A stretch of 64,000 bases of DNA from a phage: the NCBI GenBank assembly GCA_024790105.1, contig GCA_024790105.1_3053.1; one strand, written 5' to 3'. The translations under genes were made by a program, and so were the position numbers. Numbering within the stretch: position 1 is the stretch's first letter; each line of letters opens with the position of its first letter. A model generated the notes under the pieces. That model saw only the letters and a program-made list of their open reading frames with translations. It was not told the DNA's origin and did no database searches. Below, piece after piece: positions 21,461-23,199 of this stretch.

Positions 21461-22390
21461 ATGTCAGGATATAATTCTCAGAATCCAAAGGAGCTCAAAG
21501 ATGTCATTCTAAGACGTTTAGGGGCTCCAATTATTAATGTTGAGTTAACACCCGATCAAATCTACGATTGCATCCAGCGTGCCCTAGAATTATACGGTGA
21601 ATACCATTTTGATGGACTTAACAAAGGTTTTCATGTATTTTATGTAGGAGACGATGAAGAAAAGTATAAGACTGGAGTATTTGATTTAAGAGGTTCAAAC
21701 GTATTCGCAGTAACTCGAATTTTGCGTACAAATGTTGGATCAATAACGTCAATGGATGGAAACGCTACATATCCATGGTTTACTGACTTTCTTTTAGGAA
21801 TGGCTGGTATTAATGGTGGCATGGGGACTTCTTGTAATAGATTTTATGGACCAAACGCCTTTGGAGCTGATTTAGGGTATTTTACCCAGCTTACCAGTTA
21901 CATGGGAATGATGCAAGATATGCTTTCTCCTATTCCAGACTTTTGGTTCAATTCAGCAAATGAACAACTCAAAGTCATGGGAAACTTCCAAAAATATGAT
22001 TTGATTATCGTAGAAAGCTGGACTAAATCATACATCGATACAAACAAAATGGTTGGAAATACAGTAGGATATGGAACAGTTGGTCCGCAAGATAGCTGGT
22101 CATTATCTGAACGATATAATAATCCAGACCATAATTTAGTAGGTCGTGTTGTGGGTCAAGATCCAGATGTTAAGCAAGGTGCTTATAATAATCGTTGGGT
22201 GAAAGACTATGCTACAGCTTTAGCTAAAGAATTAAATGGCCAAATTTTAGCACGTCACCAAGGCATGATGCTTCCAGGCGGTGTTACAATTGATGGACAA
22301 CGCTTAATAGAAGAAGCTCGATTAGAAAAAGAAGCATTACGCGAAGAATTATACTTACTTGACCCTCCGGTGGGAGTGTTAGTTGGATGA
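21461..22390 (+). CDS. 13: neck protein gp13
   Basis: 309 aa; synteny. Confidence 0.9.
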
Positions 22391-23199
22391 ATTATACTAA
22401 AATTTACAACTCTCTTATAGAAAGATCTCTTAAAAGAGGTCTTAATAAGAAAAAATTAGATTATTATACAGAATCACACCATATTGTCCCAAAATCCATG
22501 GGAGGAGATGACTCTAGAGAAAACAGGGTTTTACTGACAGCAAGAGAACACTATTTTGCGCATGAGCTTCTTTTTAAAATACACCGAAATTCTGAAATGG
22601 CTTATGCCTTAATAAAATTCTCCAAGGGTACAAAAGAGCAGAGAATTGTAAGTAAAGATTACGGATGGATTAAAGAGGAAACATCTAAAATTAGATCAGA
22701 AACCATTAAAAAGTTTTGGGCGAATCTATCACCAAATTTAAAACAGGAACGAATTAAAAAAGCCGCAAAAGGCATTAAAAAAACTAAATCTTTATGGACA
22801 GATGAAAAGAGAAAAGAAGTTAATGCAAATATTCGAAAAGCTTCTGTGAAATATTTGGAATCGTTATCAGAAAACGAAATGTTAGAATATAAAGAAAGAT
22901 GTTCTAAACAAATGAAAGATTTTTGGTCTGAGATTAAAAGCGACCCCAAAAAATACGAAAAGTATTTAAATAAACTATCTAAGGGTCTTGCAAAAGTCGA
23001 AAAGAGAAATTGCCCGCATTGCGGAATTATATGTGATGTAGGAAATTATGGAAAATACCACGGCGATAAATGCAAAGTTATCACGGGTGTATCTCATAGC
23101 AGAGAAAAATTAAAATGCCCGCACTGTTCTAAAATCATGGATAAGTCTCACGCTAAAAGATACCATTTTGACAATTGCAAATTTAAGAAGGTCGAATAA
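22387..23199 (+). CDS. HNH family homing endonuclease (Mob-like), inserted between genes 13 and 14
   Basis: N-terminal [32 protein letters not shown]-type motif; C-terminal Cys-rich region; paralog of ORF 43793-44485. Confidence 0.8.

Follow-up and report, generated by a model that had tools for sequence, protein, structure and literature searches.

Two open reading frames in the phage DNA analysed here (the window, i.e., the whole stretch of 64,000 nucleotides), termed HNH1 and HNH2, are, as judged from sequence, free-standing HNH genes of the T4 Mob family, which share one nuclease module and end in unrelated predicted DNA-binding modules. Both are likely intron-less homing endonuclease genes, separate members of the family that are each faithful to their own site and spread by the homing mechanism proposed below. 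The initial annotation had read them as one endonuclease lineage that colonised two loci; this part of it did not hold. Instead of forming a recent duplication-and-retargeting pair, HNH1 and HNH2 are each an old member of a family with several members, and each keeps to its own site.

22387..23199, + strand: HNH1 gene, 270 aa, ATG start, between neck genes 13 and 14
43793..44485, + strand: HNH2 gene, 230 aa, TTG start, between uvsW and uvsW.1; MobE-like

Predicted nuclease and DNA-binding modules

Both reading frames are real and intact at the coordinates first assigned to them, and each lies free-standing between complete flanking ORFs. HNH1 and HNH2 match the 'homing endonuclease' family PHROG 655 (6e-52 and 2e-60, respectively). 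The Pfam HNH model gives 18.0 bits for HNH1 and 17.1 bits for HNH2, both under its 21.4-bit cut-off, and HNH_4 is found over its cut-off in HNH1 (2.8e-5). The near-collinear N-terminus noted at first is present in both proteins, with 48% identity over the N-terminal 85 aa and the Mob-type signature MNYxxIY...HHIxP..GG.DD..N.V.LT..EH..AH.LL.KI, and the pairwise BLASTP alignment of HNH1 with HNH2 is significant (35% identity over 161 aa, E=6e-23). The C-terminal parts, also described as different at the outset, show no alignment with each other.

This N-terminal signature is common to the whole T4 Mob family (MobA-E), and the N-terminal domains of HNH1 and HNH2 are 41-61% identical to those of T4 MobB-E over 85 aa. 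Within this domain HNH1 is closer to MobD (55%) and MobB (53%), and HNH2 to MobE (61%), than the two are to each other. In addition, a relative of HNH2 with 69% identity occupies the uvsW|uvsW.1 site in Jiaodavirus PSE-D1, and in T4-like contigs from metagenomes gene 14 is immediately preceded by relatives of HNH1 with 50-56% identity. Since each protein is nearer to other Mob proteins and has same-site relatives in other genera, the pair does not represent one lineage at two loci.

In HNH1, the HNH domain at aa 1-~80 is followed by five long helices at aa ~92-203 and then, at aa ~205-265, by two CPHC...H...C zinc fingers. Its closest T4 relatives are MobB and MobD, which are uncharacterised free-standing HNH genes (BLASTP identity 50% over 111 aa for MobB and 47% for MobD, the alignments spanning ~111-117 aa at 47-50%). 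Neither MobB nor MobD has the two CCHC zinc fingers with which HNH1 ends, and the insertion site of HNH1, 13|14, is also a different one. The paired Cys-x2-Cys ... His-x3-Cys motifs are similar to the C-terminus of I-TevIII, with 34% identity over 76 aa (E=3e-7, BLASTP against a small local database). I-TevIII is an HNH endonuclease encoded by the group I intron of nrdB and is active in RB3; the double zinc-finger region of HNH1 aligns with its C-terminus, but HNH1, unlike I-TevIII, is free-standing and has a Mob-type N-terminus. In an HNH1-headed alignment of 61 homologues, H31, H32, N46, H55, H59, C244, C247, H260 and C264 are invariant. In the AlphaFold model of HNH1 (pLDDT 93), the HNH motif lies in strands and a helix, and the CCHC motifs fall in two strand-strand-helix units. 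A Foldseek comparison of this model with the PDB gave non-significant local matches to HNH domains and zinc-finger arrays (best E=0.28), and PDB sequence searches found no solved Mob protein. By these sequence comparisons, the C-terminal part of HNH1 is a pair of I-TevIII-type CCHC zinc fingers, a predicted DNA-binding module.

For HNH2, the predicted layout is an HNH domain with two NUMOD3 motifs and, at the C-terminus, a DNA-binding region like that of I-TevI. The catalytic residues invariant among HNH1 homologues (His/Asn/His) are also present in HNH2. The two NUMOD3 motifs score 51.9 bits against a 20.4-bit cut-off (7e-14), and residues 156-215 match the I-TevI DNA-binding domain of PDB 1I3J (E=0.006); the score with PF20987 I-TevI_DNA-bd, 14.8 bits, is under the 27-bit cut-off. 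I-TevI itself differs from HNH2 in that it is encoded in an intron and its catalytic domain is of the GIY-YIG type. In favour of the TTG start of HNH2, translation from it yields the family N-terminus MNYxxIY, and a protein begun at the first in-frame Met (residue 34) would lack the HH motif.

The closest T4 relative of HNH2 is MobE, which lies between nrdA and nrdB and nicks nrdB; the two are 52% identical over 106 aa and have a 4-residue deletion in common. A GC-rich hairpin in the 5' coding region of HNH2 (43830-47) occupies the position homologous to the MobE hairpin, but, unlike that of MobE, it has no U-tract. The NUMOD3 motifs, the I-TevI-like C-terminal domain, the TTG start and the uvsW|uvsW.1 site are peculiar to HNH2, which has 230 aa compared with 141 aa for MobE. 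According to a review (PMC2988022), T4 mob genes carry distinct C-terminal domains, and MobA and MobE nick DNA.

Two other readings of HNH2 were considered and rejected. The label 'intron-encoded endonuclease' given to it in some records was not borne out, as no intron was found and TIGR01453 scored under its cut-off; a scan of the window for Rfam families found neither introns (group I or II) nor members of another family. A short stretch of HNH2 DNA is 92-95% identical to T4 mobB. This stretch corresponds to the catalytic core, which has 75-89% DNA identity among all mob genes, and the match is therefore no evidence for recent gene conversion in HNH2.

Anatomy of the two insertion sites

At both sites the start codon of the endonuclease gene overlaps the stop codon of the upstream gene, as previously noted, through ATGA at 22387-22390 (gene 13) and TTGA at 43793-43796 (uvsW). 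The features of the first site are as follows.

21461..22390, + strand: gene 13 (neck protein), upstream flank
22367..22390, + strand: recoded, insert-linked 3' end of gene 13, holding GGGAG (22372-22376) and the ATGA overlap
23201..23971, + strand: gene 14 (neck protein), downstream flank

Genes 13 and 14 are separate genes everywhere, and in T4 they are indeed adjacent, with stop and start 1 nt apart. The gene 14 ATG likewise lies 1 nt past the HNH1 stop, so that the spacing between gene 13 and gene 14 in T4 is reproduced. The gene 13 protein ends in PPVGVLVG* (stop TGA) in the insert-bearing phage versus PPFGILVG* (stop TAA). In an alignment of five insert-bearing and eight empty genomes (1702 columns, 208 of them polymorphic), all fixed differences fall at 22370-22389, i.e., within the 20 nt immediately upstream of the insert, and none lies downstream.

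The second site has a longer linked tract.

42288..43796, + strand: uvsW helicase gene, 502 aa, upstream flank
43659..43792, + strand: insert-linked foreign 3' end of uvsW, with GAGG (43782-43785) 7 nt 5' of the TTG start
44468..44485, + strand: displaced original uvsW tail, AAA ACA GTT AAT TTA TAA (KTVNL*)
44486..44497, + strand: GGGCTTCGGCCC hairpin in the uvsW/uvsW.1 spacer
44511..44741, + strand: uvsW.1, 76 aa, downstream flank

The foreign uvsW tract is ~70% identical to the empty-site allele versus 97% just upstream of it, and the last codons of uvsW are recoded from KTVNL* to KEVKL*. Insert-bearing and empty genomes differ by 29 fixed differences, all at 43661-43775; they are confined to the 125 nt immediately upstream of the insert, and none lies downstream. 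This linked haplotype occurs in 53 records, 49 of them with the insert, and HNH2 is always accompanied by a foreign tract. Its distal half is found in four insert-free records (LH2 and OES_C-1/2/3), showing that the distal half is not strictly tied to the insert. The displaced original tail is now read as the last five codons and stop of HNH2, and its sequence is the one with which uvsW ends in genomes whose site is empty; the 30-mer at this place is shared exactly by about 430 records. The GGGCTTCGGCCC hairpin behind it belongs to the host, since it is found at empty sites too.

A ribosome-binding-site-sequestering hairpin of the kind present in Aeh1 mobE was looked for at both sites. Upstream of HNH1 the fold is no better than that of shuffled sequences (z=-0.7). 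Upstream of HNH2 it is borderline (z=-2.0; 6 of 200 shuffles), and in RPN226 one of the stem pairs is disrupted with no compensation.

Expression

A late promoter consensus is present at 41632, upstream of segE-uvsW, and none was found inside either insert. From the sequence, both genes are thus best described as promoterless cassettes inside late transcripts, whose translation appears to be coupled to that of the upstream gene via the stop/start overlap and a Shine-Dalgarno sequence made by the recoding. The overlapping start codon and the lack of an own promoter are common to HNH2 and MobE, and T4 mob genes in general have been described as promoterless cassettes with UAAUGA coupling (review PMC2988022).

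Distribution among related phages

The population sample was the GenBank phage collection, as scans of IMG/VR gave few Tequatrovirus loci. HNH1 is carried by 47 of ~507 matching phage records and HNH2 by 49 of ~491, so that each insert is present in about 9-10% of Tequatrovirus records, T6 included. Both inserts occur together under 13 phage names, and many phages have one only. The sites are empty in T4, T2, RB14, ~90% of Tequatrovirus records and more distant T4-like genomes; the inserts are therefore far from universal, in keeping with what the initial annotation had expected of such a comparison. Occurrence in about one in ten related phages is the behaviour of ordinary mobile elements. 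HNH1 copies are on average 98.1% alike versus 94.9% for gene 13 in the same genomes, and this phage and T6 differ by 4 codons in HNH1 and by 60 in gene 13, suggesting a recent spread of HNH1. Literature searches found no paper on either insert.

Proposed homing mechanism and alternatives

By analogy with MobE, MobA and I-HmuI, we infer a homing mechanism for both genes and, along with it, actual nicking, the target position, immunity and current homing frequency; the candidate target sites are guesses from linked polymorphisms only. In a mixed infection, the enzyme would bind the insert-free allele via its C-terminal DNA-binding module, i.e., HNH1 via its zinc fingers at the 13|14 junction and HNH2 via NUMOD3 and the I-TevI-like helix-turn-helix at the end of uvsW. 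The HNH module would then nick or cut this allele, and recombination-dependent repair off the insert-bearing template would copy in the endonuclease gene and, with it, the neighbouring recoded end of the gene upstream. The insert-bearing genome would itself be immune, because its site is interrupted and the upstream half recoded.

The two genes may also be weapons between phages and not only selfish elements, with damage to the neck-gene or uvsW region of a co-infecting relative leading to marker exclusion or a lower yield. This is compatible with homing by Mob-family enzymes, and we regard it as possible but rather doubtful. That T4 seg and mob genes cause marker exclusion is established (review PMC2988022), interference of an intron endonuclease with a phage competitor has been described (PMC11620839), and both targets are late genes that are essential or important. 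However, sequence cannot tell benefit from selfishness, and the ~10% frequency and the decaying copies speak against a strong benefit.

These decaying copies raise the question of whether the genes are relics that homed in the past and are now inactive passengers, retained since precise loss is rare. Copies in F1, FN and SHFML-26 are frameshifted and that in BF15 is truncated, and T4's own mobA and I-TevIII are defunct. Moreover, nonsynonymous changes are relatively frequent among the insert copies, with a nonsynonymous:synonymous ratio far above that of the flanks (e.g., 9:19 vs 1:41), which fits relaxed selection and possibly inactive copies. However, most of the 47 HNH1 and 49 HNH2 copies are intact, those of this phage are full length and retain every invariant catalytic and zinc-binding residue, and HNH1 has diverged less than its flanks in phages of differing genomic background. 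Decay into relics is thus unlikely as the general explanation, and site-faithful homing is preferred.

A role of HNH1 in packaging, like that of the HNH proteins that aid terminases in cos-type phages, is highly improbable: HNH1 has the HNH motif and lies ~2 kb upstream of genes 16 and 17 (terminase), but T4-type phages package by the headful, ~90% of close relatives package normally without HNH1, and its closest relatives are Mob homing endonucleases rather than terminase-associated HNH proteins.

uvsW and uvsW.1 as separate genes

It could also be supposed that HNH2 divides a once-continuous uvsW helicase gene, giving genes-in-pieces like Aeh1 nrdA/mobE or T4 39/mobA/60, in which a mob-type gene likewise lies between cistrons whose products act together (UvsW and UvsW.1 reportedly form a complex; Nelson and Benkovic 2007). 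A single uvsW of 1764 nt (587 aa) is annotated in the T4 reference NC_000866.4, and the flanks of the insert are labelled uvsW-A/uvsW-B or 'DNA helicase (x2)' in PST, T6 and other records. However, in every insert-free genome examined (RB14, T2, CrRp10, LH2, T4T, a 2020s T4 assembly and nine IMG/VR loci that span other genera) a stop codon and a hairpin separate an ORF of 502 aa from one of 76 aa. Precisely at the GC hairpin, the T4 RefSeq sequence lacks 1 nt that all the others have. Two ORFs were also confirmed when T4 was resequenced (Nolan et al. 2006), and the 587-aa fusion annotated in NC_000866.4 is an old error of 1 nt (PMC1524935). As uvsW and uvsW.1 are separate in all insert-free relatives, the split was not made by the insert. 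A division of uvsW by HNH2, scarcely credible in any case, is refuted by ~20 insert-free genomes, two other T4 sequences and Nolan et al. 2006, and the uvsW/uvsW.1 description used from the start is correct. This also clears a database trap, in that the labels 'uvsW-A/uvsW-B' and 'DNA helicase (x2)' stem from the 1-nt error in the T4 reference.

A possible common insertion design and its significance

We put forward tentatively, as a conjecture that may well be wrong, that both cassettes follow one insertion design, accompanied by marker exclusion if the enzymes are active. In this design, the element may enter a late gene a few codons short of its stop codon and bring along a recoded replacement tail. 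The recoded tail may at once destroy the homing site, build the Shine-Dalgarno sequence and build the overlapping start codon, and the displaced original tail may become the C-terminus and stop of the endonuclease. This last feature is clear for HNH2 (KTVNL*). For HNH1 the sequence comparison is no more than suggestive: the ends to be compared are KVE* versus LVG* in this phage, and a metagenomic relative ends in LVG*. To our knowledge, such an insertion design has not been described so far.

The current understanding of homing endonucleases is unchanged by HNH1 and HNH2. They enlarge the Mob family, which is small and for the most part unstudied, by two apparently intact members that are present also in T6; as candidate target sites can be read off natural empty alleles, these enzymes are easy to test. 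The anatomy of the junctions illustrates how such elements fit into tightly packed late operons and leave the flanking genes unharmed, with the recoded host tail in a double role as putative immunity determinant and translation-initiation region. If the enzymes are active, T-even crosses would be expected to show marker exclusion affecting the neck genes as well as the UvsW/UvsW.1 helicase pair, and, if this is true, HNH1 and HNH2 would be weapons of competition rather than mere passengers.

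Two Mob-family HNH endonuclease genes

The window covers late genes of a Tequatrovirus (T4/T6-like) and has no identical record in the phage collection, where the closest records (T6, ESh36, PYPS2T and others) are 97-98% identical to it. The two paralogous HNH ORFs with a common N-terminus that the initial annotation had pointed out, here called HNH1 and HNH2, were confirmed at the following positions:

21461-22390, + strand: neck gene 13, 5′ neighbour of HNH1
22387-23199, + strand: HNH1, 270 aa, exactly between neck genes 13 and 14 (site 1)
ATG at 23201, + strand: neck gene 14, 3′ neighbour of HNH1
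42288-43796, + strand: uvsW, 5′ neighbour of HNH2
43793-44485, + strand: HNH2, 230 aa, TTG start, between uvsW and uvsW.1 (site 2)
44511-44741, + strand: uvsW.1, 3′ neighbour of HNH2

The two proteins are 35% identical over 161 aa (E=6e-23), and both match PHROG 655, a homing endonuclease family (6e-52 for HNH1, 2e-60 for HNH2), as well as HNH Pfam models, of which HNH_4 is above the cut-off for HNH1 and Pfam HNH is below it for both. Each start overlaps the stop codon of the upstream gene, as had been read from the sequence, through ATGA at HNH1 and TTGA at HNH2. Public records, including T6, already annotate these ORFs as homing endonuclease or hypothetical protein; a literature search found no publication on either.

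The T4 mob genes, translated from the T4 record, were compared with both proteins over the 85 aa of the N-terminal domain. HNH1 is 55%, 53%, 49% and 41% identical to MobD, MobB, MobE and MobC, respectively, and HNH2 is 61% identical to MobE, with a 4-residue deletion in common, 53% to MobB and 52% to MobD. The motif noticed at first is therefore the signature of the Mob family, the T4 free-standing HNH homing endonucleases MobA-E, to which HNH1 and HNH2 belong by this comparison. The proposal that a single lineage had colonised two loci did not hold, because HNH1 and HNH2 are nearer to T4 Mob proteins (MobD and MobE, respectively) than to one another (48%); on these identities they are not nearest relatives.

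Their C-terminal DNA-binding regions do differ, as proposed, with zinc fingers in HNH1 and NUMOD3 plus an I-TevI-like stretch in HNH2. In HNH1, five long helices are followed by two CPHC...H...C zinc fingers, a region with which the C-terminus of I-TevIII aligns (34% over 76 aa, E=3e-7 in a small local database). An alignment of 61 database homologues of HNH1 showed invariant catalytic residues (H31, H32, N46, H55, H59) and an invariant last finger (C244, C247, H260, C264), and the AlphaFold model built from it is confident (pLDDT 93); a Foldseek search of this model against solved structures gave no significant HNH-domain or zinc-finger-array match (best E=0.28). HNH2 carries two NUMOD3 motifs (7e-14), and its C-terminal stretch is matched by the I-TevI DNA-binding domain (PDB 1I3J, E=0.006; Pfam match below cut-off). 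A GC-rich hairpin (GAGCCCAGAATCGGGCTC) lies at 43830-43847 in the HNH2 5′ coding region, within the codons for RAQNRAR, and no U-tract follows it on the coding strand. Its position appears homologous to that of the weak intrinsic terminator reported in the 5′ coding region of T4 mobE (PMC2988022).

Distribution among phages

Of about 507 phage records that match the flanks, 47 contain HNH1 DNA (38 phage names, T6 among them), always at the 13|14 junction and with 96.4-99.5% identity. HNH2 DNA is complete in 49 of about 491 records (36 names, among them T6 and PST). Both inserts are found in 13 phage names and one only in many, such as CrRp10 (HNH1) or PST, G8, ZN18 and BF15 (HNH2). T4, T2 and RB14 have neither, and gene 14 follows immediately on gene 13 in the 14 T4-like genomes of greater distance taken from IMG/VR. 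With this sporadic distribution and these empty sites, the inserts are therefore not universal, which bears out their reading as optional at both sites. Degenerate copies also occur, HNH1 being frameshifted in F1, FN and SHFML-26 and HNH2 truncated in BF15.

Among insert-bearing genomes, mean identity is 98.1% for HNH1 vs 94.9% for the adjacent gene 13 (4 vs 60 codon differences between the window and T6), which may be a sign of recent spread. Nonsynonymous changes make up a far larger proportion of the differences in the inserts than of those in the flanks, a possible sign of relaxed constraint.

A tblastn search of isolated phages for HNH1 relatives at 60-95% identity returned none but one record, and a large protein collection held three metagenomic relatives at 50-56%. 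Two of these (P0002, P0003) have a gene-13 end on one side and gene 14 on the other, and the third (P0004) lies directly 5′ of gene 14 on a contig whose start looks like a gene-13 end (PPFGILLG*); gene 14 of these contigs is only 69-79% identical to that of the window. HNH2 relatives at 60-80% identity occur in 22 records, and the one examined, from Jiaodavirus PSE-D1 (69%), sits at the uvsW|uvsW.1 junction with stop/start overlaps on both sides. By these placements, the HNH1 and HNH2 lineages each keep to their own site. Separately, a metagenomic T4-like contig (L046, Logan SRR33991139) has at 1621-2217 (+), between genes 14 and 15, a 198-aa ORF that resembles HNH1 weakly (about 31% over 101 aa) and also in the zinc-finger end; with the HNH1 relative 5′ of gene 14, this gene is therefore flanked by two nuclease genes.

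uvsW and uvsW.1 are two genes

The 587-aa uvsW of the T4 RefSeq record first suggested that HNH2 had split uvsW, and many phage records label its flanks uvsW-A and uvsW-B. This was ruled out by the two ORFs of insert-free genomes, every one of those examined having a 502-aa uvsW ending in ...KTVNL*, the GGGCTTCGGCCC hairpin and a 76-aa uvsW.1. T4T and a recent T4 assembly have the same two-ORF arrangement, and T4 resequencing confirmed it (Nolan et al. 2006), so that the uvsW/uvsW.1 naming of the second site stands. Positions 6160-6200 of the RefSeq stretch (L002, NC_000866.4), which correspond to 44468-44497 of the window, are 1 nt short exactly at the hairpin, with TTTAATAAGCTTCGG in place of the TTTATAAGGGCTTCGG that all other T4-like genomes and the two further T4 sequences have, and this fuses the two genes into the 587-aa ORF. 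From there the error has spread to many phage records, where it shows in the labels 'uvsW-A/uvsW-B' and 'DNA helicase (x2)'. In T6 MH550421 (L035, 23200-24707), uvsW is annotated as two pieces of 1098 nt and 345 nt in a region 1 nt shorter than that of the window, probably a frameshift or sequencing error of that record; the other insert-bearing genomes do not show it.

Directly 5′ of uvsW lies segE, a GIY-YIG homing endonuclease gene (41668-42285, +) that is present in T4, T6, RB14 and CrRp10 and absent from T2, RPN226 and BF15. With HNH2 on the 3′ side, uvsW therefore has endonuclease genes on both sides in this phage.

Other nuclease genes

Gene 17 (terminase large subunit; 25318-28170, +) is in three parts:

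25318-26211, + strand: N-terminal piece, gene 17 sequence up to ...IYIDE, then further residues
26198-26797, + strand: nuclease like TnsA / phage endonuclease I (Pfam PF08722, 5e-10)
26785-28170, + strand: C-terminal piece, about 107 aa ending ...VESHN/CAFIPNF, then gene 17

The C-terminal piece matches the 'consensus engineered intein CatC' (PDB 6DSL, E=3.8e-12), and Pfam found no intein domain. The arrangement resembles an atypical split intein of natural origin, with a short N-fragment and a free-standing nuclease gene between the halves. It occurs in 17 phage records (including HY03, pSe_SNUABM_01, SG1, BYEP01 and, at 79% identity, phiR1-RT and TG1), annotated as 'terminase large subunit (x2) + endonuclease'; gene 17 is intact in T4, in T6 and in about 480 further records. 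The ORF 30182-30838 (+) lies between the genes for the tail sheath (18) and the tail tube (19) and encodes Cys-x2-Cys pairs as well as a 'LDHKVS...N' motif that is HNH-like. It is the counterpart of T6ORF160 and PST ORF163, is absent from T4, T2, RB14 and CrRp10, and probably represents one more optional nuclease gene, from another family.

Junction anatomy, expression and mechanism

The inserts lengthen site 1 by 809 bp and site 2 by 689 bp. The alignments comprised 5 genomes with the insert and 8 without at site 1, and 7 and 5, respectively, at site 2. All fixed differences between the classes fall within 22370-22389 at site 1, the last codons of gene 13, where PPVGVLVG*/TGA replaces PPFGILVG*/TAA, and within 43661-43775 at site 2 (29 of 29); in the same alignments, neither the sequence 3′ of the inserts nor that farther 5′ holds any. 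The site-2 tract is 70% identical to empty alleles vs 97% just upstream, and is therefore foreign DNA that came in with the endonuclease gene. Over its first 127 nt it is matched at 91% by four insert-free records (LH2, OES_C-1/2/3), and in LH2, the record examined, only the distal half is present, which shows recombination within the tract. The recoded uvsW end, KEVKL* (AAA GAG GTT AAA CTT TGA), puts GAGG 7 nt 5′ of the TTG start, and HNH2 has the unaltered original tail, AAA ACA GTT AAT TTA TAA, as its final codons and stop; a 30-mer containing it is exact in about 430 records. At site 1, recoding makes GGGAG 10 nt 5′ of the HNH1 ATG. The HNH1 end (AAG GTC GAA TAA T ATG) resembles the gene-13 end (TTG GTA GGT TAA T ATG), and the last residues of one metagenomic relative are ...LVG*, which is only suggestive of a displaced gene-13 tail.

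A match to the late-promoter consensus of T4, TATAAATA, lies at 41632, 5′ of segE-uvsW, with none inside or just 5′ of either insert, and the inserts are therefore promoterless cassettes inside late transcripts; sigma-70-like and terminator scans stayed at chance level. The overlapping codons suggest translational coupling to the upstream gene, as described for several T4 endonuclease genes, mobE among them (review PMC2988022), and folding did not support hairpins hiding the ribosome-binding sites of HNH1 or HNH2.

Family membership, distribution and junction anatomy are observed for HNH1 and HNH2, and by analogy with MobE, MobA and I-HmuI (PMC2988022) we infer their activity as enzymes, the place of their targets and their present mobility. 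The best-supported explanation, which we hold to be probable, is that the two are HNH endonucleases of the Mob family that home without an intron, in which case the enzyme would nick or cut the empty allele, recombinational repair would copy in the endonuclease gene together with the adjacent recoded tail, and the interrupted and recoded site would then be immune.
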